Assembly (NCBI GenBank): GCA_963932905.1
Contig: CAWVRN010000016.1
Location: 32,412 to 96,411 of the forward strand
Source: an uncultured Bdellovibrio sp.
Lineage (GTDB): Bacteria; Bdellovibrionota; Bdellovibrionia; Bdellovibrionales; Bdellovibrionaceae
Length of the DNA: 64,000 nt
Reading direction: 5' to 3'
The position numbers and the translations under genes were made by a program. Positions 25,747 through 53,085 of the stretch are shown here, piece after piece. The notes beneath the pieces were generated by a model. It saw only the letters and a list, made by a program, of their open reading frames with translations, was not told where the DNA came from and did no database searches. How positions within the stretch are numbered: the first letter of the stretch is position 1; every line of letters begins with the position of its first letter.

Positions 25747-26967
25747 CTAGCGCGAGCCGAACATACTGACCACATTCGCAGGGAGTTCCATCGGGCGCTC
25801 AATCGCTTTCGCTTTAAAGCTAAGCTTCTCTGTCGCTCCCGCTTCCTCGATACCAGCCATGCGGATGTAAATCTGCATCGTCTCAAGATCCTGCCAGCCA
25901 CCGATCTTCATGACCGTTGTCGCAGGAACCCCGGCTTGAATTAAGTGCGTCGCAAAACAAGCTCTGAGCGTGTGGAACTTAATAGATTTAAGTCCCTCGT
26001 TCACACAGAAGGCTCGAAGAACCTTCGCTTGCATGCCTCGTCTCAACTCATGGAAGTCCTGAAACACAAGAGTCCCTTGCTCGTCCTTGCCCCAACTCAT
26101 TGACGGCAAATAACTTTGTAGGAACCAGTAAAGTTCACTAGAAACAGGAACCGTGCGCCAGTAACCGGCCTTCGTTTCCCCAAATTTCTTTGTGCTCTGG
26201 CTCCATGCACGGTGAACTCTAATAAGTCCGTAACTCTTTTTTGAATCATCAGACTTATCGAGAGCCAAGGCTATTTCCCTAGAAACAAGGTCGATGTCTT
26301 CTAACCGAAGGCCTCGCAGTTCTCCTGCGCGCATTCCAGTATAAAGACCAACCTTCCATATAGGGTGCCAAGGGTGCTCTTTTTGTTCCGACCGTTCTAG
26401 CAGCAGAATAACTTCATCCCTCGTCAAGATCTCGGGGATGGTGCAAGCTGGCTTTCGCTCAAGCTCCACCGCGTGAACAGGGCTCTTGTCTTTCCCGACA
26501 ATGTGCCCGTGTTCCATGCCCCATGTGTAAATCACATTGATTGCGATCTTGATCTGATATTGAAGAAGGATACTTGCTTCTTCTGCTTTTGCTAAAGTGA
26601 AGATCTCTGCGCCATCAGCAAACCCAAGCTTCGATGCGGGCTTCTTCAGCCAAGACTTTGTCCAGTTATTGGCTCTCGCCACATAATCTCGAACCGTCGC
26701 AGGCTTGAGCTTCCGTGAAGGGAAGAGTGTGTAGTAGCGTTCCCACTTGTCCACAACTTCACCCCAGGTCGCGCCCTCGTTTTCACGTCTCGCAACTTTG
26801 ATGCAAGCTTGCTGATATTCGCGCTTATAGATTTTTTCCGCTTCCTCTTTAGAGGCAAGATCAATCTCTCGTTTCTGTTCGCGAATCTTGCGATTCTTGC
26901 TCGAAACGACATTGACGTATGCTTGCCACAATATTTTTCCATCTTCTTCGTAACTGGTTACACCCAT
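25747..26967 (-). CDS. int: Tyrosine recombinase/integrase
   Basis: TGMRAGEL, K (ETKAG), [16 protein letters not shown] catalytic residues. Confidence 0.93.
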
Positions 26968-33824: not shown

Positions 33825-36347
33825 CTAGACTCCTTTTGTTTTTTCGTGAATCTCGTTTCGATCCTGCTCACTGTTCGCAGAGGACAGTCGATCAAGATTT
33901 GACTGGATATATCTAAACGCTCCTTGATGAGTGCTGGTCTTATTCGCGTAAAAGACTTCTGCGTACTCATTCGGGCTTGTTTCAAGCGTGTCGAGAATCT
34001 CAAGTGATGCGGAATTCAAAAGCGATGAGTGTTCCCGCAGATAGCGAACATTGTCGGGACTCATTTTTAAGAAAAAGAAATTGTCAGCTCCGCCCCAAAC
34101 AGCTTTACCGGCCTCAGTTTCAAAGAAGACTCTGGGATTTGGTGCAACACCAATCAGGAAGAATCCCATTTTTCGCATTCTCTCTGCGGCCTCTACAACG
34201 AATTCGCCAACGATTGGGTTGTCGCGGCCCAAACAGCCAAGCTCTTCGATATAAAGAACTCCACCGCGTTTCAGGCTTTCAGGTTTTGACATCATCGTCA
34301 TAATTTCCTGAATCACGCACATGCTCATGAGGACTTTGAGTGTTTCATCCGAATCGAGCGCTTCCAGGTCATAGGCATAGAGAAGCTTCGCTGATTGCTT
34401 CCTCGTTTGCGCTTGTCCTCGGAAGAATGCCGCATACACACCATCACCGTAGAAAGGCATAAGCCGAGTGATGAGATCTTCGATTTGCTCTTTGAGCGTC
34501 TCAAATTCACCTTCGGCAGTAAGGCCCGACATCGAAGCGATCACATCATCCATGGAAACTGAAACTTCGTTTGTCGAATCTCCCTCAACAAGCACGCCAT
34601 CCTTGTAAACGATTCCGCGCTCACGAGCCCTCCGCAAATAGGCATCCTTCAATGCGCGAGACACAATGCTCATGTGATGACTTTCCATCTCGAATGACGT
34701 GCTCGTGAGTTTGACCGCTGTCAGAATCAGCTTGGTCAGAAAATGTACTTTTGCGTCGTCGAAGGCTCCGCGAAACGATGAGAATGGCATTTCCTTGCTG
34801 GGATCAAAGACGCTTAGGTCTCCATCGAAATCTCGACACAAAGCCTCACAGCTCGTTCGCTTGTCGATTACAAACGCCATCGGCTCTGGACCTTTAAGTT
34901 TCAGCGCCTGAACACAGTCTAGCGCAAATTTACTTTTTCCGGAGCCCGTGTCTCCAAGGATGGCCGTGTGATTTGAAATCGCATTGGACGCCCACGAAAA
35001 ACGAACAAGATTGTTTTCCCGCGATAAAAATATTTGAAGTGGATTGTCCATCCCACTGTATGAGTCAAAAACAGGAAGAAGCTTTGTCGCATCTTTATTC
35101 ATGATCCGAACAAATCTCTGACTCGAATGATCCGCCGAGGGCGTATAGAAAAGTGGAAGACTATTTAAGCAAAGTCCGAAGCCGATCATCTCTTCTCGGA
35201 TAACTTCACACTCTAAGTCATTGTGAAATACGCTGGTGATGGCTCTGGTTCGTTGATTCAGAACCTCTTCGGTTTCTCCTTCGATAATCACACTGAATGT
35301 CATAAACAAACACCGCTCGTCATGGGCAAGTCGTTCTTGAATTTCCTTGATCTCCTGCTGCTGACGACGAGCCCGCGCGCTCGGACTATTTTGAAGAAAG
35401 AATTCCTTCGTATCAAAGTAGCTTTTGATTTTTGCAGCTTTTGGAAAGCTAAAATTGAGCGAAAGCTTGAATGGAAAATTGAGCGTGAGAAAATTCGCCA
35501 TTCCGCCAGGGACGACCCGTCGAGGACTCGTCTTAAGCGTAATAGTCCGAGTCTTAAGGCCCTCTCGCTCCAGTCCTTCAAAGTCGCCCTTAAGCCCCGC
35601 ATAGACGACTTGTTCAGAAATTGAAGTGTGCGGGTTGAACGGCGCGAAATCTCGTTCAAGATATTCTTTGGGATTAAAAAACCGTCTCAGGTATTCGACG
35701 AGTTCAGCACCTCCTACTCGGGTTAGGGGAACTTTTGAGCTATCAACAAATTGAGCGAGAATTTGAGAAAATTCTGAAACCTCCATCGTCATCGCGTTCA
35801 TCGAATCAAAGAGAAGACCCTCTCCGCGCTCCATGAGGCGTAAGATTTCTTTTTTGTTGTCTTGATCTGGAAAATACCTCATCGACAGAAGAGCGCGTCG
35901 ACGCATCGGCGAAAGTTTATTTTTCCCTTCGCAATAGCTCTTCAGATTTTCAAGTCGCGCCTCATAGATCGTTTTTGAAACTGGATTTGGATCCTTGAAG
36001 CCGCTCGCTTCAAATGTCCAAATCGGATCGCGCGCCGGAATGTGTCCCTGATCGAAGACAATCTGCAAAGTGCATTTCTCTGGCAAGAAGAACCAAGATT
36101 TAAGTCCTTCGACCATTTCAACGATTCGGGTTGCTTCAAGCGGCTCATGCTCAATGAGTCCAAGTTCAAAAACGGCCCCTAAAGATCCATCTTTAAGAAC
36201 AAACATTCCGGCTTCGCTTAAGTATTCTTCGTATGGAAGAATTTTTGCGAAGGAGTCGGGACGCTCAAACAAGGCACGAACAAATTTCGTTCGGCTTGCG
36301 AGTGTGGATTCAATAATTTCGCTATTTGATTTTTCAATTCCAAGCAT
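33825..36347 (-). CDS. traC: VirB4/TraC family ATPase
   Basis: 840 aa; HTAILGDTGSGKS Walker A, VIDK, YIEE Walker B, RMRKMG. Confidence 0.88.
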   Translation of the reverse strand: MLGIEKSNSEIIESTLASRTKFVRALFERPDSFAKILPYEEYLSEAGMFVLKDGSLGAVFELGLIEHEPLEATRIVEMVEGLKSWFFLPEKCTLQIVFDQGHIPARDPIWTFEASGFKDPNPVSKTIYEARLENLKSYCEGKNKLSPMRRRALLSMRYFPDQDNKKEILRLMERGEGLLFDSMNAMTMEVSEFSQILAQFVDSSKVPLTRVGGAELVEYLRRFFNPKEYLERDFAPFNPHTSISEQVVYAGLKGDFEGLEREGLKTRTITLKTSPRRVVPGGMANFLTLNFPFKLSLNFSFPKAAKIKSYFDTKEFFLQNSPSARARRQQQEIKEIQERLAHDERCLFMTFSVIIEGETEEVLNQRTRAITSVFHNDLECEVIREEMIGFGLCLNSLPLFYTPSADHSSQRFVRIMNKDATKLLPVFDSYSGMDNPLQIFLSRENNLVRFSWASNAISNHTAILGDTGSGKSKFALDCVQALKLKGPEPMAFVIDKRTSCEALCRDFDGDLSVFDPSKEMPFSSFRGAFDDAKVHFLTKLILTAVKLTSTSFEMESHHMSIVSRALKDAYLRRARERGIVYKDGVLVEGDSTNEVSVSMDDVIASMSGLTAEGEFETLKEQIEDLITRLMPFYGDGVYAAFFRGQAQTRKQSAKLLYAYDLEALDSDETLKVLMSMCVIQEIMTMMSKPESLKRGGVLYIEELGCLGRDNPIVGEFVVEAAERMRKMGFFLIGVAPNPRVFFETEAGKAVWGGADNFFFLKMSPDNVRYLREHSSLLNSASLEILDTLETSPNEYAEVFYANKTSTHQGAFRYIQSNLDRLSSANSEQDRNEIHEKTKGV

Positions 36348-36454: not shown

Positions 36455-37036
36455 CTACGGCCAAACTTCTGGAAACAAATTGCCTGCTGCATCTTCTGTT
36501 TCTAGTATTGAAGCAAACTTTGTTGCTTTCGCGTTTTTCAGTTTTTCCAAGTAAAAAGCCTTTTTAGGTTTCATCTTAGTTTGTGCCTTCATATGCTGAA
36601 GCACGCCGTCCTTTACTTCCTCTGGTACACTTAAGAAAAGATCACACAAAAACAAATCTGGGCTGCATACTGAAATCCCAACAGGACTCAGTAGTGCGTC
36701 GGGAAAGTCCTTCAAATTTAAAGTGACGATGGTGGAGCAGTTTTGCTGCCGAGCTAAAGCCACCACATGCTCATCATCTTTATCTGGAAGTCCGACGAGA
36801 GTATAACCACCAGCCAAAGTTTTTCTTGAAGCGCTGAATTGCTTGAACACGCCGCCCTCAATATTTTGACGAAATTTTTGTTTCGCTTCGTCGTCATCTG
36901 AGTAATTGCGAAAAACTTCATCCCAAATTTCATCTGACCAAGTGATCTGAATTAAGCTTCCCCAAGAAAGCCACAGAAACAAGCCGCGAAGAATATTCGA
37001 ATAAAGCACGTTGGCATCAAGAACGATTTTATTCAT
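36455..37036 (-). CDS. PIN-domain toxin (VapC50/PIN_3-like)
   Basis: IVLDANVLY, LPDKDDEHVVALA, IVTLNLKDFP. Confidence 0.88.
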   Translation of the reverse strand: MNKIVLDANVLYSNILRGLFLWLSWGSLIQITWSDEIWDEVFRNYSDDDEAKQKFRQNIEGGVFKQFSASRKTLAGGYTLVGLPDKDDEHVVALARQQNCSTIVTLNLKDFPDALLSPVGISVCSPDLFLCDLFLSVPEEVKDGVLQHMKAQTKMKPKKAFYLEKLKNAKATKFASILETEDAAGNLFPEVWP

Positions 37037-37421
37037 CCTTATCTATACCAAATCCGTCTTCGTCCATTTTCGACATCACCTGAGCAAATTGCTCACGCTC
37101 TTCCATATACTGAAGCAAAGAGCCTTTTGTAATTCTCCAGTGGGTGCCGACCTCATAACCCTTGAGTCTGCCAACTTTCAGCATGTGCATGATTGAGGGA
37201 CGAGAAATGCCAGCAATCTCTCCCGCTTGAGACGGCGACAGATCATCCTCAATAACGATGGCTTTTTCATCTAAGAGAAGCTCCACAAGTCCGACAAGTT
37301 CATGAAGGGAACTCTTCTTGATCTCAACGACTTCTTTAGGCTGTTTTTCTGCTCCCTTGAGTAAGGCCAAAAGGTTTTGGACCTTTTCTTCCTTTTCCTT
37401 CGTAATAAGCAGTCGTGACAT
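37029..37421 (-). CDS. Excisionase-HTH antitoxin/regulator
   Basis: LSPSQAGEIAGISRP...VGTHWRI; overlaps PIN gene; start ATG 37421 after GGAGG. Confidence 0.8.
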   Translation of the reverse strand: MSRLLITKEKEEKVQNLLALLKGAEKQPKEVVEIKKSSLHELVGLVELLLDEKAIVIEDDLSPSQAGEIAGISRPSIMHMLKVGRLKGYEVGTHWRITKGSLLQYMEEREQFAQVMSKMDEDGFGIDKDE

Positions 37422-37596
37422 AGAGCCTCCTATGTACCCATCATAATACATAACTGTATTATCTGAAACATCTTTCTTATCCTTATTATCGGCAGCATCT
37501 AACATAACTTAAGTCTCCTATATTTGTTTTGGCGCCATAACTGTCTTAAAACGCTCCCGATCTCAAACTGAGACAATCTCTAGCCCCCCGCTAGCG

Positions 37597-41928: not shown

Positions 41929-42681
41929 TCAATTCGCCGCTTTCAATAGTCGAAGGATCTCGTCGAATTCGTGATATCCTTCAATGGCTGGCAAAAGTGC
42001 TTTCCGCTTTGTGTCCGCAATCAGCAGAAATGGCACACCTTTGATCCCATGTTTTTTTAGATCACTAGGATCAGCTCTTGAGATCGGAACAATTCTTTCT
42101 GCATCCGGCACGGGACCGCTATCTACTTGCAAAGCTTCGACATGAAATCCGCCGTCTTGAAGTTTCTTTAGAACCTGAAACATTCGTCGGCAATGAGGAC
42201 AGGTGGATTCAAAATACATCCTCAAGCGAAAGCGTGACGGATCAAGATCTACATTTTGCTCTTTTACTTTCGGCGGAGCTGGCGCCACCGATACTACATT
42301 TGATGGAACCGTCATCTCGCCATTTTTTGCCATGTACTCAGCCATTCGCTCTTGAAGCTTTGTTTGAAGATCATTCTTCTTCTTCATCAATTCAAACCAC
42401 TGCTTGATATTGTCGTCCGTCGGATTTCTTGCGACCTCCATAAATGGCTCCGGTGGCGTGTAGTCTCCCTCCTTGAAGAATTCCTTATTCTTCGGATCAA
42501 GGAACGTCTTCCACGGAAATTTGCCGTCTTGCTTATCCGTCAGACTCGGCTCTTTTTTGGGAGCGTCTTTTGAGCTTTGCTTATCGCCCCAGAAGTCGAT
42601 CTTAGAGTCGAAGTATTCTAAATTTTCTGCTTGGGCAAAAGATGACAAAAGCAAAAAAAGAATCGTTTTACGAATTACCAA
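41929..42681 (-). CDS. Thioredoxin-fold conjugation protein (TraF/TrbB-like)
   Basis: TTG after AGGAGG; signal; ARNPTDDNIKQW; YFESTCPHC; GVP. Confidence 0.75.
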   Translation of the reverse strand: MVIRKTILFLLLSSFAQAENLEYFDSKIDFWGDKQSSKDAPKKEPSLTDKQDGKFPWKTFLDPKNKEFFKEGDYTPPEPFMEVARNPTDDNIKQWFELMKKKNDLQTKLQERMAEYMAKNGEMTVPSNVVSVAPAPPKVKEQNVDLDPSRFRLRMYFESTCPHCRRMFQVLKKLQDGGFHVEALQVDSGPVPDAERIVPISRADPSDLKKHGIKGVPFLLIADTKRKALLPAIEGYHEFDEILRLLKAAN

Positions 42682-43837
42682 GTTGAACCTCCTTCGAATC
42701 AATTTCTCCTCGAATCGCTCTCGCAATTCGTGCATCTTCCAGAGATTGAAAAACCTTTGGATGCTTAACGCCGTCGTTCACAAATGAAGCCCACTCGATA
42801 CTTGGAACTCGGCCCCGGATTCCTGAAACGCAATTCGGACAACCTTCTTCATGCCTCATGCGCATTTCACTTAAAATCCCCGGATGATTCTTTGAAAACC
42901 AATCAGTCACCTCGACGGATGGTTTTTCTGCACACTCAGTACAAAGTTTTTGCTCAAGTCTCTGCGCAACCGAAAGGCGCAAATTGGATTCTAAGACGAG
43001 TCTTTCAACGCCAAGGCCAGCAAGTCGCTCGATTACTTCTAGCGATCCATTTGCATGAAGAGTGGTAAAGACCAAGTGCCCAGTTTCCGCTGCTTGAAAA
43101 CAAAGTCTCGCGGTTTCGGCGTCTCGCACCTCTCCAACGAGGATAACATCAGGATCTTGCCGAAGCACTGACCTGAGAGCGTCAGCAAAGGTCATCTTGC
43201 GATTTACTTGCACTTGATTGAGGCCCTCAATGCGATATTCAATCGGATCTTCCAAAGTCACAATGTTAAGACGCTTTGGATTTAACGCCTTAAGCAGCGC
43301 ATAGAGAGTTCTCGTTTTACCACTTCCCGTAGGACCTGAAATTACAATGACTCCATCCTCGTATTGCAGGGCTCTTTCAAGCATCTTTTGCTCCGATTCT
43401 AAAAAGCCAAGTTCTGAAAGATTGAAGCTCGCATCAAGATTCAAAAGTCGCATAACAACTTTTTCGCCAAAGTGAGTTGGCAAAAGACTCACACGCAAAT
43501 CAAGCCGTAGCGACGGCAATGAAGCCCTGCCGTCCTGCGGTTTACCGCTCACTCCGATAGAAAGTCCGAAGATCCGTTTTGCTTCTAGAATCAAGCTCTC
43601 TCGGTGCTGAAGCTCTATTGACCTCACGAGAACGAGGTTCCCGTCTACGCGAAGTCTAAAATCAATTCCAAGCTCGGTCGGTTCAATGTGAATGTCACTG
43701 GCACCTTTTGCTTTGGCTTCGGTCACCAAGTCCTTAAGAAGTTTTGCGTAAGGTCCGACATCAGAAAGTAATTGTTCTGCCGTTCGACGTTTGGCGACCG
43801 TAATGCCGTGCTCGTTTTGAAGTTTTAAGCTTGTCAC
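42668..43837 (-). CDS. GspE/PilB family secretion ATPase
   Basis: ASDIHIEP, PQDGR, GPTGSGKT, TLEDPIEY, LRQDPDVILVGEVRD, TGHLVFTTLH, CxxC..CxxC; GTG 43837 after GGAGG. Confidence 0.9.
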   Translation of the reverse strand: MTSLKLQNEHGITVAKRRTAEQLLSDVGPYAKLLKDLVTEAKAKGASDIHIEPTELGIDFRLRVDGNLVLVRSIELQHRESLILEAKRIFGLSIGVSGKPQDGRASLPSLRLDLRVSLLPTHFGEKVVMRLLNLDASFNLSELGFLESEQKMLERALQYEDGVIVISGPTGSGKTRTLYALLKALNPKRLNIVTLEDPIEYRIEGLNQVQVNRKMTFADALRSVLRQDPDVILVGEVRDAETARLCFQAAETGHLVFTTLHANGSLEVIERLAGLGVERLVLESNLRLSVAQRLEQKLCTECAEKPSVEVTDWFSKNHPGILSEMRMRHEEGCPNCVSGIRGRVPSIEWASFVNDGVKHPKVFQSLEDARIARAIRGEIDSKEVQLGNS

Positions 43838-46800
43838 TTCGCACCTCCGCACGCAGCAGGAATGGTAAGGCTCGCGGCTTTTGCTTGAGCGGCTGCTGGC
43901 ATATCCTTGCAGGCAAAAGTGCGACTCCAAATCACGAACAGATAGCCTTTGAGTTTTCCGTTTACGAGCCTCATTGTCTCGCGGGCATTTACGACCGATT
44001 CCAAAATTCCCACGTTCTGACCTTCTCGAAAGCAGGAACTGGATTGCGGATAAATCATCTGCCACTTTTCGTCTGGACTATTGGGCATGGAGTGCAGCAC
44101 TTCTACAGAAAGACTCTTGATACGAGAGGCCACCATCAACGCGCCCGCCATTGATGCCGGACCTGAGTAAGTGCCATAGCGCGGATAAAAGACGCCCCAT
44201 CCGTTACAAACCGAATGAGTGCTTGGCGGAAACATATTGATCTTTGGAACGTCGAAACTACACATGGCCGAGTCAGGGGAAGGAGCGCCGCCCCCTTCCC
44301 CTGTAATAGAAGTCGCGGCACCCTTGAGGAGGCATAACTTTGGCGCAAGCCCCGATGCTAAGAACAGAGGCTGAGTCATGTCATTCTTGCCAGTATTCCA
44401 GTGCGCTCCGAAATGTTCGCTCATTCCATCAAAACAAACTTTCTCCATTCTTGTGCCACCGGCAGGCATTGTTTGAAATGTCAGTCCCGCAAGAGGTACT
44501 GCAATTGTTCTGGCCTGAAAACTCTGAGTGTCGTCATCGGCCTCAGTCCCAAAGGGCTTAGGAAAAATCTTAGCAAGCTGAGCTGACGCTCCTGGGATTC
44601 CTGAAAAATAACTCGTCTTGGGCTCCGGCCACACTTCAATGAAAGTCTGTGGCACATAGTAAGAAATCGCAGCACAGGGTCTTGGAGGATATCCACAAGT
44701 GCATCCCCCGATATTTAATTCCAGGCATGAAGTGAACGCTGGCGTACTTGCTACGGTACAAATATTCGGAATTTCCGCTTGAACATTGCCCGCGAGGAAG
44801 AGGGAGGCTGCTATAGCGCGAAGATTCTGAGCGAAATGCTTAATTCTCTCTACAGCTCCTCCCTTCTTCGTTACACGCAGCATTTCAAGCACTGCCTCAT
44901 GCTTCGTATTGATGAATCTCAAGAAATCAGGCTTAAGATAAAGTTTTAAAAACTTCGTCTCGATTCCATCAAATACTTGAGCGAACGCCTCGAAAGTTCG
45001 AAGCCTTGAGAACTCGCGGCCTGTGATGAGATCTTCTTTTCGCTTTGCTCTGGAGATCGCCTCATTCAAACTTGAATTCTGTGAATCGAATCCTCCGGCG
45101 AGTAAGTTCAGTTTTGCCGACTGCGCTGTTTCTGACATTGAGTGCGATTCAACCTCGCGATCCTCTTTTCCCGCCAATTCTTGGAAAAGCTTGATTGTTT
45201 CCGAATCTGAAGAGTGACAAGCAATTCTTGTTCTAAAGTTTTGCATAAGAACAAGAGCGGCTCTTTGGCTTCCTACCGAATCCATCAGTGAACTGACCGA
45301 TTGAGTCGCGACAATCACGGCGGGCTTTGATTCCCGAGCCTTTGCCATAAAAGTGTCGTCACCGATTGTGCCACCACCTCCGCAGGTCACAACATCTTGG
45401 TACTCATCAATTATGAGCGCTGTCGTGCAGAGTTTTTCTTGCTCTTTCAATTCACTCAGCATATTCAATACGGCCTGCTGATAGTGAAGCTTGATGAATG
45501 TTCCCATTGAGCGCGCAAGTCCTGGTTGATTGATGTCAAAGAGGAGAATTTTTCCTTCACGAATCAACTGCTCCATTGAGCGAATCGTGAGGTTCTCCTC
45601 CTTCGGACATAAAACGCGATTTGCCGCGAACTCCTGGAACTGATTGATGAATGCCGTACTTGTTGCGACGATTCCAGATCTTACGCGGTCCTCAAGCTGC
45701 GAGTATTCGTTTTCGAAATACTCCATAGCCCGTTCAATATTAAATCGCTCTTCTTCAGTGAAGGCGCCCGTATCAAGACGTTTTCGTAAATCGTCTGACA
45801 AATTCTCTTTCGAAGCACGAACGATAGCTCGATAGAGATCAAGCAACGTAAAGTACCCATGTTCTGCCGCACAATAGACGATGGCGTTCTTAATCAAGTT
45901 CGAAGATGAAATATCCCAGAAGGGTGAGTCCGAAGACTTACCCATAAAATTTACAGCAGCAGCTCTAACCATTTCGGCTAGCTCGGTGAACTTTGAATTC
46001 CGAAGCGGGTTTTCGATATAAACGGGGTTAAAGCTCACCGAACCTCGAAGAGAGATTTTGACGATTTTATCCCCAAGGCCTGCACGTCTGATAATTTGCT
46101 CTGCGTCCGCAAGGAAAGTCCGTTTAGGATCAATCGCAAGGATCGCGGGTGAGCTTTCACCGGCCCGCAAGATTTGGCGCAAATAGCGAAGCACGGTCCC
46201 TTGGGTTTTTCCACTACCGATACTTCCTGAAATCATAATCCCACCGTTGAGGCCACGGCTCGGAATTTTAACCCAACTCTCCGACTCTCCTGAATTCTGA
46301 ACAACTGAATGCGTAAGTTGTCCTGGCGTTGTCCCCAGAACGAGTTCGCCTTCTTCAACTTCGGGTGCATCCAGCTTGTGAATGTCATTAAACGAAAACT
46401 TTAGTTTCGCGATTCCGCGCAAGAACATGCGTATAATTAGACCGATGGTGAAAGCAATGTTCGCACTTAGGAGGGCGACAATCCCTGAAGGCTGAAACCC
46501 CTCTGTAAACCGCAGGAAGATTGGCCCAATGAAGTCAGCGATTTGTTTTTTACACGCGAAGTAAGTGACGGCGCTGGTGACAACAGAAACGCACTCGGCT
46601 CTTCCGAATTTTAAGTGTCTTGATTTCCCTTCAAGAACAGCGAGTTTACTTCCTTGTTTTTCAAGTCCAATGGATCTTTTAAGATAAATCGAACCGAACG
46701 AAATATTCACCATCGCGCAAGAGATTGTGATCCAAAAGAGCTTCGCATTCGCCTCTAGCTGCTGAAGCGCAAACTGCAGCAGATCTGGGTGAAGCCTCAG

Positions 46801-46896
46801 ATGTGCGAGATATAAATACACGAGTCCAAATCCGGCGAGCGCCATGAGCGCGAGCGAGAGAGGGACATCACTCTGTGCAGTTTGTGTTCGTGCCAT
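43834..46896 (-). CDS. Type IV coupling protein (TraD/VirD4-like) fused to a C-terminal TraU-like Cys-rich domain
   Basis: N-terminal TMs, GSIGSGKT, IDPK, IIDEYQ, ATQS; after ~aa 700 signal-like segment then SC....GGCTC, SYYVP..FIEV, WGVFYPRYG, KWQMIYP. Confidence 0.8.
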   Translation of the reverse strand: MARTQTAQSDVPLSLALMALAGFGLVYLYLAHLRLHPDLLQFALQQLEANAKLFWITISCAMVNISFGSIYLKRSIGLEKQGSKLAVLEGKSRHLKFGRAECVSVVTSAVTYFACKKQIADFIGPIFLRFTEGFQPSGIVALLSANIAFTIGLIIRMFLRGIAKLKFSFNDIHKLDAPEVEEGELVLGTTPGQLTHSVVQNSGESESWVKIPSRGLNGGIMISGSIGSGKTQGTVLRYLRQILRAGESSPAILAIDPKRTFLADAEQIIRRAGLGDKIVKISLRGSVSFNPVYIENPLRNSKFTELAEMVRAAAVNFMGKSSDSPFWDISSSNLIKNAIVYCAAEHGYFTLLDLYRAIVRASKENLSDDLRKRLDTGAFTEEERFNIERAMEYFENEYSQLEDRVRSGIVATSTAFINQFQEFAANRVLCPKEENLTIRSMEQLIREGKILLFDINQPGLARSMGTFIKLHYQQAVLNMLSELKEQEKLCTTALIIDEYQDVVTCGGGGTIGDDTFMAKARESKPAVIVATQSVSSLMDSVGSQRAALVLMQNFRTRIACHSSDSETIKLFQELAGKEDREVESHSMSETAQSAKLNLLAGGFDSQNSSLNEAISRAKRKEDLITGREFSRLRTFEAFAQVFDGIETKFLKLYLKPDFLRFINTKHEAVLEMLRVTKKGGAVERIKHFAQNLRAIAASLFLAGNVQAEIPNICTVASTPAFTSCLELNIGGCTCGYPPRPCAAISYYVPQTFIEVWPEPKTSYFSGIPGASAQLAKIFPKPFGTEADDDTQSFQARTIAVPLAGLTFQTMPAGGTRMEKVCFDGMSEHFGAHWNTGKNDMTQPLFLASGLAPKLCLLKGAATSITGEGGGAPSPDSAMCSFDVPKINMFPPSTHSVCNGWGVFYPRYGTYSGPASMAGALMVASRIKSLSVEVLHSMPNSPDEKWQMIYPQSSSCFREGQNVGILESVVNARETMRLVNGKLKGYLFVIWSRTFACKDMPAAAQAKAASLTIPAACGGAK

Positions 46897-47054
46897 TAAG
46901 CCCCCATTTTTTTGTTGGTTGAAGCTGCCTTCAAATAGGCGAGCGCCTTAAGAACTCGGGCTGTTCTTTTCTCTAAAGATTTATTTCTTATTTTTTCACC
47001 CTCAGAAACCTGGCCCAAAATTCTAAGAATCGTTTGTTCAATTGTTTCATTCAT
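46896..47054 (-). CDS. 52-aa hypothetical protein
   Basis: Below ORF-track cutoff; GAGGGG RBS; TAATG overlap with T4CP start. Confidence 0.5.
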   Translation of the reverse strand: MNETIEQTILRILGQVSEGEKIRNKSLEKRTARVLKALAYLKAASTNKKMGA

Positions 47055-47069
47055 AACCCCTCCGGTTAG

Positions 47070-47297
47070 TCATTTGACTTCGTTGTTGTTTCGTTTCGGA
47101 CTCACATAGCGTTTATTGCGCGGCCAATCTTCAACTCCTTGAAATCGTCCGTCGTGAAATACGAATCGAAAAGTTCCATAGGAGAAATCGGCGCCGTGTT
47201 CGTCTGCATACTGTTTTTGAAGGCGTCTTGCGGCCTCTTCCAAAACGGCTTCGTCCGTAAGGTCTTTGACTACAGTGCTTGTTTTGCTTTCGATCAT
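47070..47297 (-). CDS. Small protein, YezD/DUF2292-like
   Basis: YGTFRFVFHDGRFQGVE; ATGA overlap. Confidence 0.55.
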   Translation of the reverse strand: MIESKTSTVVKDLTDEAVLEEAARRLQKQYADEHGADFSYGTFRFVFHDGRFQGVEDWPRNKRYVSPKRNNNEVK

Positions 47298-47488
47298 CCG
47301 ACCACTACCTTTCCCGCCAGCAGGCGTTCTAATTTCTCAATCTCGGCAACCAGGACTTTGTTATAGACAAGCTCCTTAACCGAAAGATTTCCGTACCAGT
47401 TGCGAATTTCCGTTTTAATTCTCTCGATGGCGCTCGGCCCCGGAGTTGCCACATATTCCAAATTTTCATTTCGCTTTGTATGGCTCAT
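47294..47488 (-). CDS. Small hypothetical protein
   Basis: GAGG RBS, MSHTKR start. Confidence 0.55.
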   Translation of the reverse strand: MSHTKRNENLEYVATPGPSAIERIKTEIRNWYGNLSVKELVYNKVLVAEIEKLERLLAGKVVVG

Positions 47489-47501
47489 AGCCAACCTCTC
47501 T

Positions 47502-47789
47502 TTAAAAAATATTTCTGTACTGCATCGCCTGCATTCGAGCTTGCTCAATTTTTTCCTGTTGTGGTGGCGCAATAAAAAGCACGCACCCAATTCCTCGAAT
47601 CACGTTTCCCAGAGTTCTCAATACCCAAAGCCCTGCAATTTTCTGCCAAGCTTGCTTGGCTCCAAAAACAAGCTTCATAAAAAATTCGTAGATTTTAAGT
47701 CGCCAAGGTTTCCAGAATGGATTTGTAAATAGCCATTCGCCCTCGTTTGAACCGAGGATCACAGTTTGGTTCATTACGTTTTGTTTCAT
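47502..47789 (-). CDS. Small hypothetical protein
   Basis: ATGA overlap with upstream gene. Confidence 0.55.
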   Translation of the reverse strand: MKQNVMNQTVILGSNEGEWLFTNPFWKPWRLKIYEFFMKLVFGAKQAWQKIAGLWVLRTLGNVIRGIGCVLFIAPPQQEKIEQARMQAMQYRNIF

Positions 47790-48043
47790 GCGGCACTTCC
47801 TTTTTTATTTTTCGAGTTCTGATTCAGAGGAAGCTGTTCAACGACTGACTGAGTCTTTATGGATTTCATTTGCGCAACGGCCTCTGCTGCCCACGGGGGA
47901 ATTGGCAGCTCATCGCCGGATGATTTTGATTTTCTATAGGTAAGAAGATCAGGCGCGTAGTTGCAGCACAGACAGTGTGAATGGGTGACAAGCTTTTCGA
48001 GTGTTCGCTCGTTGCATCGGGGACAAGTTCTTAACGTACTCAT
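47786..48043 (-). CDS. Zinc-ribbon small protein, first gene of tra operon
   Basis: AAGGAG RBS then MSTLRTCPRC...CLCC. Confidence 0.65.
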   Translation of the reverse strand: MSTLRTCPRCNERTLEKLVTHSHCLCCNYAPDLLTYRKSKSSGDELPIPPWAAEAVAQMKSIKTQSVVEQLPLNQNSKNKKGSAA

Positions 48044-48098
48044 TTTTTTGCTCTCCTTATAGTGAAGGACATTTCTAAGTCCTTTCATCTTTTAGAAT

Positions 48099-48689: not shown

Positions 48690-50252
48690 CTAGGAATCCC
48701 GGACAGCACTCATAACCATTCTCACAGAGTTATCCACCATGCGCCTCAAGTCACCTTTGCCGTTGGCGTGGTCTTTTCGACTAACGACGTCCATGCTTTC
48801 CCAAATCCCCAAGGCCTGGCACTGACTGCGTAGGGATGACCGAGCCACTCCAAGCTTCCTGGCGGTCTCAGACAAGTTATATTCGCTTGCTTGGTATGTC
48901 TTAAGGATAAGTGTTCTAACTTCGTTTTCATGACGAGCATTCATTTGCTCAAGAGATTCAAGGGTTGTCACGTTTTCAACATTCGCAGCACCTTCAAGCT
49001 CCCCGTATTTCTCGATATGCTCTGGCAAGATGATTGGGCCGCTTACTAAGACCGAAAGTCTTTCGATTAAATTTTCCAGCTCGCGGACATTTCCAGGCCA
49101 CGAATAGGCTCGAAGCATATCAAGCGAATCGGGATGCAACTGTTTGGGTACGCCGTCAGATTGTGATGGTCGTCGTTTTTCTAGAAAGAACTCGCATAAG
49201 ACTTCAACATCGTTGGGCCGCTCAGCAAGTCTTGGCAGATCAATCTTGATCTGCTTCATCCGATAGATCAAATCAGCCAAAAACTTGTCTTCATTTACGA
49301 GGACTTTCAAGTGCGGCTTTGAGGCGAATACCAATCGCACATCAACATGTTTTTCGGTGCTACCGCCGACTCGTCGAACTTTTCGATCCTGAATAAATCG
49401 CAATAGCATCGCCTGCGCTTCGTCACTCAAATGATGAACTTCATCTAAGAAAACGGTTCCGCCATTAGCCACCTCAAGGAGACCGATTTTTGATTCAGCT
49501 CCAGTGAAAGCACCTTTTTCGCTCCCGAATAATTCGCTAGCGATAAGTTCCGATTTTTTGAATTGCGTGCAATCAATTGTACGAAACTGTTTCTCTTTTC
49601 GATCTGAATTCTGATGAATCGCTCGGGCAAACAACTCTTTTCCAGTTCCCGTTTCTCCGTAAATTAAAACTGATAAATCTGATTTCGCTGTTTGCAAAAC
49701 AAGATCTGCGGCCGCTTTCATTTCACGATCAACAGATACAACTCCGATTTTTTTGAGAGAGTCAGGCACTTGACTCATGCGGCGAGTGCGATTTCCCAGG
49801 AACCCATTGAATTTGGAGCGAAACTTCGTCAGAGCTTCAGTGATAAAAATTTGCAGCTTTTCTTGCTGCCCGACGAATTCCTTATAGAGGAACTTGTCAG
49901 CGCCATTTTTTAGCCATAAGCGAAGGCTCTCTGGTGTTGTATCCGACGACATCATAACTATCTCGATATAAGAGTTCACTCTTTTGATCGGACGTATGAA
50001 GTCTGCTCCTAAAGTAGTCTTCTCTTTTGATTCATGAAAATGATGATCCATAAAAACCAAAAAGACGTTGAAGGGATTTTTCTTTATCGAATCAAGGGCC
50101 AGCACTGGATGCGAATGAAACTCGACATCGAAAGCGCGCTCTGCTCCAAAGGCTGAATCGAGCGATATCTTGAGCCCGTCACGAAAGCAGCTTTCGTCAT
50201 CTACAAAAATAACTCGTGGTTGTTCCATAGGACCCTCCCTCAATGCGTTCAA
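48690..50252 (-). CDS. sigma54-dependent response regulator (NtrC-like bEBP)
   Basis: REC (VDDE, FMDH, K), GETGTGKE, SELFGSEKGAFTGA, FLDEV, WPGNVREL, Fis-type HTH. Confidence 0.93.
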   Translation of the reverse strand: MNALREGPMEQPRVIFVDDESCFRDGLKISLDSAFGAERAFDVEFHSHPVLALDSIKKNPFNVFLVFMDHHFHESKEKTTLGADFIRPIKRVNSYIEIVMMSSDTTPESLRLWLKNGADKFLYKEFVGQQEKLQIFITEALTKFRSKFNGFLGNRTRRMSQVPDSLKKIGVVSVDREMKAAADLVLQTAKSDLSVLIYGETGTGKELFARAIHQNSDRKEKQFRTIDCTQFKKSELIASELFGSEKGAFTGAESKIGLLEVANGGTVFLDEVHHLSDEAQAMLLRFIQDRKVRRVGGSTEKHVDVRLVFASKPHLKVLVNEDKFLADLIYRMKQIKIDLPRLAERPNDVEVLCEFFLEKRRPSQSDGVPKQLHPDSLDMLRAYSWPGNVRELENLIERLSVLVSGPIILPEHIEKYGELEGAANVENVTTLESLEQMNARHENEVRTLILKTYQASEYNLSETARKLGVARSSLRSQCQALGIWESMDVVSRKDHANGKGDLRRMVDNSVRMVMSAVRDS

Positions 50253-51640
50253 GCTTCTTTCGCCGCAAGACTAAGCTGAACGCCGGTTTGTACTTTTGCA
50301 TTTCGATTCATCGACATCGGCAAAAAAATTCTGACTGCGGTGCCGACTCCTTCCTTAGAAGATATCAAAATTCTGCCATTGTATTTTTCGATTATTTTCT
50401 TGGCCCACTGTAAACCCAAACCTTTGCCGTTGGGTTTACCAAAAGACCCACCTTTTTCTAAGATCGTCTTTAAAACTGACTCCGAAATTCCAGAACCGTT
50501 ATCGACAATTGAAATGCAGCACTCATTCGCAATTCGTGTGCAGTTTACGTCAATGCTTCCCCGGTCAGAAACGGCATAGAGTGCGTTGTCGATTAAGTTT
50601 GAAATAATCCGTTTGAAGTCACTGACTTGCATTTCAATGAAGGTATCCTCGGTATTTAGTTTTGTTTGGACGGACACTTGTGGCGTCTGCCTACACATCA
50701 GGCTTTTTTCAGCAACTATTTCGTTCAAGGCAAGATCGACAGACATCGGAAGTTTTTGTATCGGCACTCTGTACTCAGAGCTTTTGCTGGAGGCTGTGTA
50801 TTGGCTGATAACATCGTTTGCGATGTCACTGATCCTCTGCGCCGAGTGATTTAAAACACCCTTGATCGTCGGGTCGAGATGAACTTGTGCCGCATTGAGC
50901 GCCACCTGAAGACTCACAATCGGTGAGCGAATATCATGTGCAACTTGTCTTGCAACATCAAGCGCCGCTTTTGCTTCGGCTGCTGCCTTAGTTACTTCAA
51001 ATTGGTAACTCAAGTTTTCGGCCAAAGAGGAGAATTCACTAATTTTAAATTTTGGTGTTTTTTTCTTGTCGCCCGTTTGGGTTTCTAAGATCTTCATCAA
51101 TTCATTAAGCTCGATTCGAATTCGTGAAAATCCGATTGAAAGACCAGCAAACAATATTACGGCAAGAAGTACGAATCCGATTGCGTTCTTCCCTGCGTTT
51201 TTCCAAATTCCTGCAATTAGATCCGAATTGTCGAACGTAATCGAGATATGTCCCATCCAATTCGAAGCATCCTCAGAAAAGTAGAGATCCGTATCCATGC
51301 GATGAAGTCCTGATGAGGAAGTTTTCAGCTTATTGCAACTTTGAATTGTTTCTGAGATCGACTTAATTTCGATGCAGAAGATTTGTGAGTTCTGCGCAAG
51401 TTCGTTCGCCCGAATTCTTGCTTCAATAAGACTTCCTTGAATAAGCGGTTGGCGAACGACCGCTGCGAAAGTTTCAAATGTGAGTTTCTGACTATCGAGA
51501 CGGGAAGTTTTGTTAACTCGATAGTCGTTCCACGCCAACAGTCCGCTAATGGCGGTGCTGACAAGGAGGACGATTGGAATAAAAATTCTCAGAAAGTATC
51601 GTTGAATAGATCTTGTCGGAGATTTCCCTAGAATTCCCAC
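50249..51640 (-). CDS. Sensor histidine kinase
   Basis: Two TMs around a periplasmic domain; AHDIRSP, NLIDNA, DNGSG, GKGLGL. Confidence 0.93.
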   Translation of the reverse strand: MGILGKSPTRSIQRYFLRIFIPIVLLVSTAISGLLAWNDYRVNKTSRLDSQKLTFETFAAVVRQPLIQGSLIEARIRANELAQNSQIFCIEIKSISETIQSCNKLKTSSSGLHRMDTDLYFSEDASNWMGHISITFDNSDLIAGIWKNAGKNAIGFVLLAVILFAGLSIGFSRIRIELNELMKILETQTGDKKKTPKFKISEFSSLAENLSYQFEVTKAAAEAKAALDVARQVAHDIRSPIVSLQVALNAAQVHLDPTIKGVLNHSAQRISDIANDVISQYTASSKSSEYRVPIQKLPMSVDLALNEIVAEKSLMCRQTPQVSVQTKLNTEDTFIEMQVSDFKRIISNLIDNALYAVSDRGSIDVNCTRIANECCISIVDNGSGISESVLKTILEKGGSFGKPNGKGLGLQWAKKIIEKYNGRILISSKEGVGTAVRIFLPMSMNRNAKVQTGVQLSLAAKEA

Positions 51641-53085
51641 TACAATCCCTTCACAAGATGGAGTCTCGGTGTATAGCGGAAAGTAGCCTCTTCAGAGATC
51701 ATGTTGGTTTGGCCGATAATGTAAAGCGGAACACGCCATCCCGGAACCATCAGCTGCTCTTTACGGAGCTGCTCATTGATCTGCTGAAACAGTTCACTTC
51801 TGACAGTCCAATTTTCTTCTTGTCTGGCACGCTTGTATTTTTCGGCAAGAGCCGGACCAATATAAGTTCCAAAATCTTTTACAAGAAATGTCGGGAGAAG
51901 AGCAATAAATCCTTCGGGATCATTAAACCCACCAGCCCATCCACCAAATATTACGTCAGGTTTTTTCTCAACTATTTTCGTCATTTCAGATGGAGAAATT
52001 TTGATAATCTCAATTTGGAAGCCGTGCTCTTTCGCAATTGCTTGAGCGTCATTTCCCTTAAGAAAGTCATCGAATGTAGCGCCTATGAACGCAAGCCTGA
52101 GTGGTTCTGTTTTTTCATATTTTTTATGCGTAATCTTTGGAGCTTGTGTAGCTGCTAAATGACCCGCAACTCCTTTGGGAATGACGCCGGTTGCTCGCTC
52201 AAGTTCCAATTTCTTACAGCCCTTATCGAGGATCTCTTCAATCAATCCCATCGCTCGGATGCGCATTTCCGGTGTATTGAAATGAGTTCCGTGCGGATGC
52301 CACCACGCTGATGTTTGAGCATAGCTTATTTGGTTCACTGTTTTGAGCTTTTCAAATCCGCTCACTTTTTGCATACCGACCTTTGTGGATAGGGTCGCAC
52401 CAGGAACGTAATCAGGAAGACCGACGGCGGGCACATTGAGATCATGATCACCAAAGAAAACAAGCTGCCATTCGCGGATGCTGATAGCTGACGATTTTGG
52501 ATATTTCTCATTTACTTCGAGATTCCAATTCGCACCTTTTTTTAAAAGACGATAAGGTCCTGAGCCAACGAGGGGTTCTGAAGAATCTTTATCGAAGCTC
52601 CAATCAATAGGAACGACACCAACTTGGTCTCGACTTAGAGCTTTAAGGATCGACACGTTGGGCTCTTTAAGGCGAATAATGAGGACGTCTGAAGCTGGGA
52701 CTTCGATGGATGAAATGCTGCCGAGAAAATTACTCGACTGGGATTTTTTCTGAATGACACGATCAATGGTATATTTAATGTCTTTGGCTTCGAGCTTTTT
52801 CCCATTGGAAAAAAAGCGATCTTTTCTGATTTTGAATTTAATTGTGAGACCCTTGTCCTCAAACGACCAACTCTCAGCAAGGCCCGGAGTAACATTACCC
52901 ATCTTATCGGTATCAACCATAGGCTCGAGAATTTGACCCAATACAATGTGCTCTGCGAATTGATTAACCTCAGCGGGATCGCGGGGAAATGTTGGCGGTA
53001 CATATCCATATTTTTTTGGTGCTGCCGAAACCATTGATGATGTCATAAAAATAATTCCTCCTATGAGAACAAGCCACCTTTTCAT
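51640..53085 (-). CDS. Family-5 (OppA/DppA-like) solute-binding protein, no permease nearby
   Basis: Signal peptide; PGLAESW..., FKIR..RFFSNG..LEAKDIKYTI, VGSGPY. Confidence 0.85.
   Translation of the reverse strand: MKRWLVLIGGIIFMTSSMVSAAPKKYGYVPPTFPRDPAEVNQFAEHIVLGQILEPMVDTDKMGNVTPGLAESWSFEDKGLTIKFKIRKDRFFSNGKKLEAKDIKYTIDRVIQKKSQSSNFLGSISSIEVPASDVLIIRLKEPNVSILKALSRDQVGVVPIDWSFDKDSSEPLVGSGPYRLLKKGANWNLEVNEKYPKSSAISIREWQLVFFGDHDLNVPAVGLPDYVPGATLSTKVGMQKVSGFEKLKTVNQISYAQTSAWWHPHGTHFNTPEMRIRAMGLIEEILDKGCKKLELERATGVIPKGVAGHLAATQAPKITHKKYEKTEPLRLAFIGATFDDFLKGNDAQAIAKEHGFQIEIIKISPSEMTKIVEKKPDVIFGGWAGGFNDPEGFIALLPTFLVKDFGTYIGPALAEKYKRARQEENWTVRSELFQQINEQLRKEQLMVPGWRVPLYIIGQTNMISEEATFRYTPRLHLVKGL

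Follow-up and report, generated by a model that had tools for sequence, protein, structure and literature searches.

Does the gene at positions 43834..46896 (minus strand) of the window, the whole 64,000-nucleotide stretch of DNA analysed, join a cytoplasmic coupling-protein (T4CP) ATPase to a cysteine-rich TraU-like domain, normally a separate periplasmic protein, and if so, how would the second half leave the cytoplasm? The open reading frame comprised an ATG start, 1020 codons and a TGA stop, with no internal stop, and homologues had the same length and covered it fully. The in-frame fusion claimed in the preliminary description was present as this single uninterrupted frame, and the junction that it quoted was found. 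The host of this conjugation gene was a Bdellovibrio-like bacterium.

The simplest way to obtain such a frame would be a mis-assembly, a sequencing indel or the recent loss of a stop codon that merged two neighbouring genes, as the preliminary description had allowed. Fusions of this type are rare in general, and one relative (G398:C295) was a pseudogene with 10 stops. However, the region 44300-45400, which contains the junction, was covered by contigs from independent public runs showing substitutions only, with no insertion or deletion. A single 8270-nt contig of run X2 covered the region with 5 substitutions and 0 gaps, a 692-nt contig of run X5 was identical to the window within it, and the contigs of run X1 were gapless. 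The junction was read through in 120/120 of the homologues listed (43-95% identity, mostly about 995-1050 aa), which together with the window made up the alignment of 121 sequences used below. Among 401 genomes sampled from the phylum, 24 contained a total of 26 uninterrupted fused frames (spanning query residues <=288 to >=1009) from 11 family codes. When the TraU subfamily was clustered at 50%, 13 of the approximately 20 complete representatives measured 948-1050 aa and only 2 measured about 335 aa. A continuous frame common to more than 100 divergent sequences, to complete-contig genomes and to indel-free independent assemblies, with equal conservation of the two halves (0.83 and 0.83), argues against artefact or decay, to which we give a negligible probability. 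The listed homologues, the phylum frames and the independent contigs refute a lost stop or an assembly error; the T4CP-TraU fusion is almost certainly genuine and, judged on sequence comparison, is real and under selection.

The names given to the two halves in the preliminary description were also right, with profile matches to T4CP families and weaker ones to PF06834. The N-terminal membrane domain (aa 1-165, 46402..46896, minus strand) was delimited by hydropathy, loop charges and the helices of an AlphaFold2 model. Membrane helices were predicted in the full-length model at aa 13-31, 51-75, 99-130 and 137-163, and the K/R-rich loop at aa 74-100 was consistent with an even number of spans; the topology, a membrane anchor followed by a cytoplasmic ATPase, is a prediction only. 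The ATPase (aa 185-655, 44932..46344, minus strand), made of nucleotide-binding and all-alpha domains, matched PF10412 with 46.4 bits (cut-off 20.5; aa 211-650, profile positions 9-384 of 387), PF02534 with 27.8 bits (cut-off 20.1) and PF12696 with 26.2 bits (cut-off 22), while NCBIfam models matched the fused protein only far under their cut-offs. The Walker A motif GSIGSGKT occupied aa 224-231 (46204-46227), residues G224, S225, G227, G229, K230 and T231 being conserved in at least 90% of the 121 sequences. The Walker B region IIDEYQD lay within aa 494-501, and D497, E498 and D501 were invariant (121/121). The top Foldseek match of the full-length model was Cag-beta (8dol, E 6.5e-13, probability 1.0); TrwB (1e9s) was matched with E 2e-12 and probability 1.0, and both, with target TM-scores of 0.53-0.66, ranked ahead of HerA and VirB4. 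This half ended with a conserved T4CP tail (PDFL..NTKHEAVLE) and a variable linker (together aa 656-682, 44851..44931, minus strand), a stretch that included M672 and the KKGG codons AAGAAGGGAGGA. The linker was the least conserved part of the protein (0.54 versus 0.83 for the domains).

The TraU-family domain (aa 708-1020, 43837..44775, minus strand) formed the C-terminal third of the 1020-aa frame instead of a free-standing protein, although free-standing orthologues exist in other genomes. Its alignment with PF06834 was nearly full-length (aa 732-996, about profile positions 39-305 of 306), with scores under the cut-off of 26.5: 18.3 bits in the whole fused protein and 23.8 bits (E 3.5e-5) for the domain scanned alone. 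The profile was matched at E<=0.01 by 27 of 32 aligned relatives (best 1.7e-14), many homologues carried a precomputed PF06834 hit, and one free-standing relative was annotated 'TraU family protein' by NCBI. The AlphaFold2 model of the domain had a pLDDT of 82.6 and a pTM of 0.86, and no solved TraU structure was found for comparison. A search of the same genome found no second TraU-like domain. Twelve of the 20 cysteines of the protein lay in this part (3.8 per 100 aa; ATPase part, 1.0); all 12 were kept in at least 90% of the 121 sequences and three were invariant. According to excerpts of the published accounts, TraU of the F plasmid is periplasmic, has a processed signal peptide and contains 10 cysteines (PMC7555446, PMC10939261), and IceU of ICEclc carries an SPI signal and is found in the envelope (PMC10018362). 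Because of these locations, the 12 conserved cysteines and a nearby TraF/TrbB-like thioredoxin gene, the TraU-family domain looks periplasmic.

Between the two halves we found an internal signal-peptide-like segment (aa 683-707, 44776..44850, minus strand), not at the precursor N-terminus, recognised by its n, h and c features and by a position matching the signal peptides of free-standing orthologues. It consisted of an n-region ERIKHFAQNLR, an h-region AIAASLFLAG and a c-region NVQA, with a predicted cut at A707|E708 (R693 AIAASLFLAGNVQA707 | E708 IPNIC713), and residues 694-706 had a pLDDT <50 in the full-length AlphaFold2 model. The mature N-terminus would be EIPNIC.. in the window and FPNVC in most relatives. 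The share of the commonest residue was 0.33-0.70 at the junction and 0.68-0.83 in the domains, so that the junction varies in sequence while retaining its signal-like features; within the window's clade the h-region was fairly well conserved (0.70), which could indicate a lasting structural role. A rule-based script found a (-3,-1) cleavage-type site in 121/121 sequences, a permissive test as small residues are common where any hydrophobic stretch ends, and the 12 residues preceding the uncharged run had a net charge of at least +1 in 111/121. Nine free-standing TraU-like genes (42-54% identity), each at the head of the same operon, encoded an ordinary N-terminal signal peptide ending just before the FPNVC motif, as in MRKVLLSVLFALMTSIVHG|FPNIC. 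Fused and free-standing forms were alike in the (-3,-1) site (117/117 versus 38/39 sequences), in the median length of the uncharged run (12 versus 11 residues) and in the positive charge of the n-region. Since the signal peptides of the free-standing orthologues end at the same mature N-terminus, the internal segment is best read as TraU's own signal peptide, retained. With only approximately 10-12 residues, the hydrophobic core in the window scored lower than a 19-residue transmembrane helix would, which suits a cleavable signal more than an anchor.

We propose, with moderate confidence, that the locus is a single conserved gene of an F/G-like type IV secretion system (T4SS) in which the coupling protein runs into the signal and domain of TraU, the latter being Sec-exported and then, probably, cut free by signal peptidase I. 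Among the options of the preliminary description, a polyprotein cut by signal peptidase is thus the best supported, through sequence features and the free-standing orthologues, from which we infer the cleavage itself. In this model, the N-terminal helices would take the translating ribosome to the membrane and the ATPase part would fold in the cytoplasm. The emerging internal signal would then engage SecYEG, and the 313-aa Cys-rich domain would be translocated to the periplasm. Signal peptidase I would most likely cut after ..NVQA707, giving a free TraU-like protein and leaving a short C-terminal membrane tail on the coupling protein. Each coupling-protein subunit would thus supply one TraU, at the place where the coupling protein sits. 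As a counterpoint, the signal comes after approximately 680 residues of already folded protein, and no bacterial precedent for a signal after such a large folded part was found in the literature searched.

Two other readings accept the fusion and differ in what becomes of the TraU domain. It might stay covalently attached to each coupling-protein subunit after export, the segment being a fifth membrane-spanning signal-anchor. Such a tether would agree with the conservation of the h-region in the window's clade and with uncharged runs of 17-25 residues in distant clades, and it would make sense, if covalent linkage matters, of a fusion that persists in relatives whose coupling protein is split elsewhere. 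However, the uncharged run of 10-12 residues in the window and in most of its clade is too short for a stable bilayer-spanning helix, and the small residues at -3/-1 are kept in 121/121 sequences, as in the free-standing forms. On the domain tree there were also at least 4-5 changes between the fused and free states, so the TraU domain works untethered. We consider a permanent tether unlikely. Alternatively, the TraU-like protein could be translated from an in-frame start, either the ATG at 44883-44881 (M672, MLRVTKK...) that the preliminary description had pointed out or a codon near aa 682, the fusion being a tolerated by-product. A GAGG lies ahead of this ATG (-5.6 kcal/mol), a score equalled by 10% of the other in-frame starts of the gene. 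A conserved SD-like AAGGGAGG is found 28 codons ahead of P710 in the window's clade, followed in five loci (L004, L005, L054, L055 and L059) by GTG or TTG at the right spacing. The short-contig protein P0122 was called from exactly the Val position after this motif, and in several relatives a Met directly precedes the n-region (..IIMKNLRA..). On the evidence of the five loci and P0122, some lineages may therefore also use an internal start. The data do not support initiation at ATG 44883 as a general mechanism: the column of Met672 contained Met in 43/121 sequences, Ile in 33 and other residues in 45. In the window the SD-like motif precedes GTA, and in other lineages it precedes GTC, CTG or ACG. 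GGAGG occurs 3-6 times per frame and also encodes other conserved Gly-Gly pairs, so its presence does not by itself indicate a ribosome-binding site. The short-linker clades L006, L007 and L011 have no in-frame ATG, GTG or TTG before the hydrophobic segment, the conserved tail of the coupling protein passing directly into the h-region. Stops after the ATPase would be expected if only the internal product mattered, yet the frame was open in 121/121 sequences. An internal start is thus quite improbable as the main source of the protein, and it may operate as a minor route.

Relatives in which the coupling protein is divided elsewhere add support to a fusion under selection. In L006, L007 and L010 the membrane domain was a separate upstream frame with four TM-like segments, and in L012, L013 and L015 the coupling protein was split after Walker A; the ATPase-TraU junction was intact in these variants. 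As the relatives with a split membrane domain keep the fusion, the internal signal segment is their only membrane determinant. If the export-and-release model is true, their ATPase would have the cut-off signal peptide as its sole membrane anchor, reused as a tail anchor.

Downstream of the fusion is a GspE/PilB-type ATPase gene (42668..43837, minus strand), whose GTG start overlaps the stop of the fusion (GTGA) and whose GGAGG ribosome-binding site falls within the final codons of the fusion. This gene was found 3' of both fused and free-standing TraU-like genes; the operon with a free-standing gene reads TraU-like, GspE-type ATPase, TraF-like, pilin, o104, TraE, TraK, TraB/TrbI, o126 and TraC. 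In the window, the TraF/TrbB-like thioredoxin gene is located two genes downstream of the fusion. An integrase (25747-26967), a MobP-type relaxase (27785-29632) and TraC/VirB4 (33825-36347) were also present, and the G+C content stepped from approximately 0.39 to 0.46 at about 26 kb of the window. The F/G-type gene set included matches to TraC-F-type (E 3.9e-47), F-type TraB (E 6.9e-35), TraE, TraK_C and the TraF/TrbB-like thioredoxin. All mating-pair-formation matches were under equivalog cut-offs, therefore the system is divergent. By its gene content, it is an F/G-like conjugative type IV secretion system on an integrated element.

The fusion brings known parts together in a new architecture, and no description of a T4CP-TraU fusion was found in the papers searched. 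The role of TraU is called unclear in the parts of the literature consulted (PMC7555446, PMC10939261, PMC10018362), and TraU is an F-specific conjugation protein without a structure or an assigned place in the F-type machine. The conservation of the fusion across the whole phylum argues that TraU works with the coupling protein, in a fixed ratio. For F-like plasmids, which are major carriers of resistance genes, this provides a specific hypothesis about TraU that can be tested. More speculatively, the fusion could be a bacterial 'polyprotein' route in which each subunit of the hexamer threads its own TraU through Sec and has it cut off on the spot. This would place a TraU ring on the periplasmic face, right at the DNA-transfer motor, and TraU, read as in a Rosetta-stone fusion, would be the periplasmic partner of the coupling protein and of the inner-membrane DNA channel. 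The gene would also offer a natural example of an exported domain placed, behind an internal Sec signal, on a large folded cytoplasmic enzyme, an arrangement for which bacterial examples seem hardly documented. In the source names, these proteins figure only as 'type IV secretion system DNA-binding domain-containing protein' or under similar terms. Annotation thus overlooks the TraU part, and T4SS loci of this kind would be counted as TraU-less.

In viral polyproteins, internal signal sequences are cut by signal peptidase, and the F-plasmid TraG has been proposed to yield a periplasmic TraG* fragment. The window gene resembles both in having a cytoplasmic or membrane part, then an internal signal, then a luminal or periplasmic part released by signal peptidase, but neither fuses an ATPase motor to a separate subunit of the machine. 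With the coupling proteins VirD4, TrwB and TraD it shares the N-terminal membrane domain, Walker A and B, the all-alpha domain and a relaxase and VirB4/TraC encoded alongside. The fused protein has four predicted membrane helices instead of the two of TrwB and, unlike these proteins, its C-terminal extension is a secreted-type domain. In the portion of the review consulted (PMC7434980), the C-terminal domains of T4CPs are presented as variable domains that contain Asp/Glu-rich regions, and a periplasmic C-terminal domain appears in none of the five architecture classes. The same portion describes TMD-less or paired T4CPs, such as TraG-TraJ pairs and T4CPs requiring a separate membrane protein (PMC7434980). 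L006, L007 and L010 resemble these in having the membrane domain on a separate upstream frame, but still carry the ATPase-TraU fusion. The TraU part shares with F TraU and IceU the near full-length profile alignment and a Sec-type signal in front, and it is Cys-rich like F TraU (12 versus 10 cysteines). Like them, it belongs to an F/G-like T4SS operon with a neighbouring thioredoxin-like gene and, as in ICEclc, a neighbouring PilT/GspE-type ATPase gene (PMC7555446, PMC10939261, PMC10018362, PMC4027160). F TraU and IceU are free-standing proteins of about 315-330 aa that carry the signal peptide N-terminally, whereas in the window the signal is internal and follows approximately 680 residues of T4CP.

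The reading frame at positions 43834–46896 on the minus strand is a single frame of 1020 codons, starting with ATG and ending with TGA, in which a type IV coupling protein (T4CP) ATPase continues into a TraU-like domain. Upstream, a TAATG at 46896 combined the stop of a small ORF with the start of the fusion ORF; downstream, a GTGA at 43834–43837 combined its stop with the GTG start of the next gene, whose GGAGG ribosome-binding site sat within the final codons of the fusion ORF. The overlaps and the embedded GGAGG place the fusion ORF in a tightly coupled operon. The gene translationally coupled to it (42668–43837, minus strand) encodes a GspE/PilB-type ATPase of the type II secretion/type IV pilus kind (E 2e-97), amid an otherwise F-like type IV secretion system (T4SS) operon. 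In passages on ICEclc (PMC10018362), a TraU homologue is likewise paired with a PilT-like ATPase.

The G+C content was raised across the 26–54 kb region (0.46 vs. 0.39), which contains genes for an integrase, a MobP-type relaxase, TraC/VirB4, F-type TraB/TrbI, TraK, TraE, a pilin-like protein, a TraF/TrbB-like thioredoxin and the GspE/PilB-type ATPase. The region constitutes an integrated conjugative element whose T4SS is F/G-like and divergent. No tRNA that could serve as integration site was found in the window. Between the TraC and TraB/TrbI genes (36455–37505, minus strand), a PIN-domain and an HTH_17 protein look like a toxin–antitoxin-like pair. Directly upstream of the transfer operon (48690–53085, minus strand), genes of intermediate G+C for a sigma-54 activator with receiver domain, a histidine kinase and a family-5 solute-binding protein may regulate the element. 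Three further loci in the genome of the window (contigs C1, C12 and C22) carried VirB4-like (approximately 820–840 aa) and coupling-protein-like (approximately 540–560 aa) frames and represent additional conjugative elements, all without a TraU-like domain.

The coupling-protein part clearly belongs to a known family. Residues 211–650 matched the Pfam coupling-protein families PF10412 (46.4 bits), PF02534 and PF12696, and superposition of the ATPase ranked Cag-beta (8dol) and TrwB (1e9s), at E of about 1e-12, before HerA and VirB4. Hydropathy and the full-length AlphaFold2 model (pLDDT 84.1, pTM 0.57) predicted four N-terminal helices (residues 13–31, 51–75, 99–130 and 137–163); in this predicted topology the K/R-rich loop 74–100 fits a cytoplasmic ATPase. 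The Walker A (GSIGSGKT, residues 224–231) and Walker B (DEYQD) motifs lie in the middle part. The last conserved coupling-protein motif, KPDFL..NTKHEAVLE, was followed by a poorly conserved, low-confidence linker, then by ERIKHFAQNLR-AIAASLFLAG-NVQA, the predicted cut and EIPNIC, which opens a 313-residue domain with 12 conserved cysteines. This domain matched TraU (PF06834) weakly but nearly end-to-end (residues 732–996); we assign it to the TraU family on this sub-threshold, full-length match, backed by the orthologues. Modelled alone, it gave a confident fold (pLDDT 82.6, pTM 0.86). Its sequence profile had no match in the PDB at E<=1, the best Foldseek E was 0.76 and the best Z against 48,161 chains (VIA-align wide) was 2.7; the solved structures thus offered no usable fold relative, a null result that is not evidence of a new fold.

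The preliminary description had proposed the in-frame fusion, with loss of a stop codon or an assembly error among the alternatives. A search of 5.8 billion proteins returned 253 matches, and in the best 120 of these (43–95% identity) together with the window, the junction was continuous in 121 of 121 sequences. Matches were present in 43 of the 401 genomes sampled from the phylum; 24 of the 43, from 11 family codes, contained 26 uninterrupted frames spanning query residue 288 or earlier to 1009 or later. Most of the approximately 20 complete close representatives in a census (C-domain profile, 50% clustering) were 948–1050 aa long (13), the others being about 820 aa (two), 518–694 aa (three) and about 335 aa (two). 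Within the window's clade, both domains were under constraint, with a commonest-residue share of 0.83 in the ATPase half and in the TraU half. Across 44300–45400, independently assembled contigs from activated sludge and groundwater differed by substitutions only. The fusion as first described is genuine: divergent homologues, the phylum genomes and independent contigs without gaps exclude both misassembly and the recent loss of a stop codon. Eight MAGs that differ in taxon label also carried the whole 1020-residue gene at 93–95% identity, and copies occurred in public runs from activated sludge and groundwater (X1, X2 and X5; at least three studies), which suggests a recently spreading element. 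From the one metatranscriptome run, X16, came two contigs of 151 nt, which cover only 44300–44499 and bear neither on the junction nor on a transcript start. In one relative (L022, G398:C295:4302–7277), a pseudogene, the frame is broken by 10 stops (6 TGA, 3 TAG and 1 TAA).

Free-standing TraU-like genes, nine in all, came out of the phylum search as well; their open frames measured 335–414 aa, at 42–54% identity. Their N-termini were ordinary signal peptides, such as MRKVLLSVLFALMTSIVHG and MKNLFISLIVICFSFKAHS (each followed by FPNIC), ending directly before the mature N-terminus common to the fused forms, a pattern that recurred in a larger collection of 39 free-standing proteins. The signal-peptide-like junction of the fused forms (residues 683–707 in the window) matches these real N-terminal signal peptides in position. 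By simple measures the two were indistinguishable: the median uncharged run was 12 residues in fused and 11 in free-standing proteins, a site obeying the (-3,-1) rule was present in 117 of 117 and 38 of 39, respectively, and the n-region was positive in both. The junction sequence itself drifts, with a commonest-residue share in a distant clade of 0.33 vs. 0.68–0.69 for the domains, and the hydrophobic core in the window is short (10–12 residues, below transmembrane-helix scores). Because these features are conserved on a drifting sequence, and with so short a core, the junction is read as TraU's own signal peptide, kept as an internal Sec signal with a putative signal-peptidase-I site after A707.

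An internal start at ATG 44883 (M672) had also been suggested, from which the TraU-like part would be initiated separately. This codon is preceded, 11 nt upstream, by a GAGG (-5.6 kcal/mol, a value matched by 10% of the gene's other in-frame starts), and the motif AAGGGAGG was considered alongside it as a candidate. The KKGG codons in the window's clade are AAGAAGGGAGGA; two codons further, GTG or TTG stands in five loci of this clade, GTA in the window and its near copies, and GTC, CTG or ACG elsewhere. The Shine–Dalgarno-like motif was rejected as proof of an internal ribosome-binding site because GGAGG occurs 3–6 times per ORF and encodes other conserved Gly-Gly pairs too. The M672 column holds Met in only 43 of 121 sequences (Ile in 33, other residues in 45), and in the short-linker clades (L006, L007 and L011) the hydrophobic segment is not preceded by any in-frame start, the n-region being supplied by the conserved tail of the coupling protein. 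Internal initiation may contribute to expression in certain lineages. It is not what has been conserved, and the window probably does not use it as its main route. The main rival to cleavage at the junction is an uncleaved tether, by which the two domains would stay joined.

The mechanism that we consider most likely is the following. The N-terminal helices would carry the ribosome to the membrane, and the ATPase would remain in the cytoplasm. The internal signal would then open SecYEG for translocation of the C-domain, which signal peptidase I would free; the signal would stay on the coupling protein as its short C-terminal tail. In this way TraU would be made where the coupling protein is made and in a 1:1 ratio to it, which would fit published passages on TraU. 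In passages of PMC10939261, swaps of TraU between F-like plasmids restored transfer and did not restore piliation.

The fused copy was the only TraU-like domain found in the genome of the window with A2, a family-specific profile; PF06834 gave no second TraU gene at E<=1, in a search that also missed the weak match of the window. The free-standing genes head an operon shared with the window (TraU-like, GspE-type ATPase, TraF-like, pilin, o104, TraE, TraK, TraB/TrbI, o126 and TraC). No coupling-protein gene was detected (tblastn, 1e-5) within 7 kb upstream of the TraU-like gene in the seven loci with full flanks (L031–L037); in L038 and L039 the contig ends approximately 1 kb and 0.5 kb upstream. 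Three of these operons (L034 on G225:C1, L036 on G194:C1 and L037 on G285:C8) lie in genomes with no match to the PF10412 profile at E<=0.001, and their T4SS may rely on a coupling protein of a different family or do without one. In the window, four small ORFs (52, 75, 98 and 100 aa) without family match lie upstream of the fusion (46896–48088, minus strand). Two of them, o75 and o100, had homologues upstream of free-standing TraU-like genes (L033 and L031), so that the coupling-protein part stands between conserved neighbours.

Splits were seen elsewhere in the protein. In L006, L007 and L010 the membrane domain is an apparent separate ORF of about 216 aa with four TM-like segments, directly upstream in another frame and ending at about nt 1433–1499 of each locus. 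In L012, L013 and L015 an apparent split follows Walker A, with a 288-aa ORF (approximately 645–1508) and then a 741-aa ORF. The ATPase–TraU junction was kept in all six variants. A quick tree of the TraU-like domain (LG+G4, SH-aLRT only, midpoint root), in which the direction of fusion or fission is unreadable without a root, placed the window with good support in a group of 25 fused sequences; both trees excluded three rows classed as "other", whose length is intermediate. All 103 rows required nine fused/free changes, and five remained (at least four forced by starred branches) after dropping four "free" rows on contigs of 1.1–2.0 kb (P0122, P0124, P0126 and P0144), two of which begin within the T4CP tail and are apparently truncated. 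A single origin of the fusion was rejected, as the tree needs at least four to five changes. It follows that the domain functions in either state, free or fused; as the signal peptide is never missing, one state readily converts to the other.

No paper describing a T4CP–TraU fusion was found in open-access PMC and bioRxiv, including with a Bdellovibrionota query, and source names among the best 120 of the 253 matches, where given, referred to the coupling-protein part only or to a "hypothetical protein". The fusion is a new arrangement of two parts from known families, and its architecture is absent from the five T4CP classes in the passages of PMC7434980. It connects the DNA-transfer motor with TraU, a so far unplaced conjugation protein, and constitutes a simple system in which to study an internal bacterial signal peptide.
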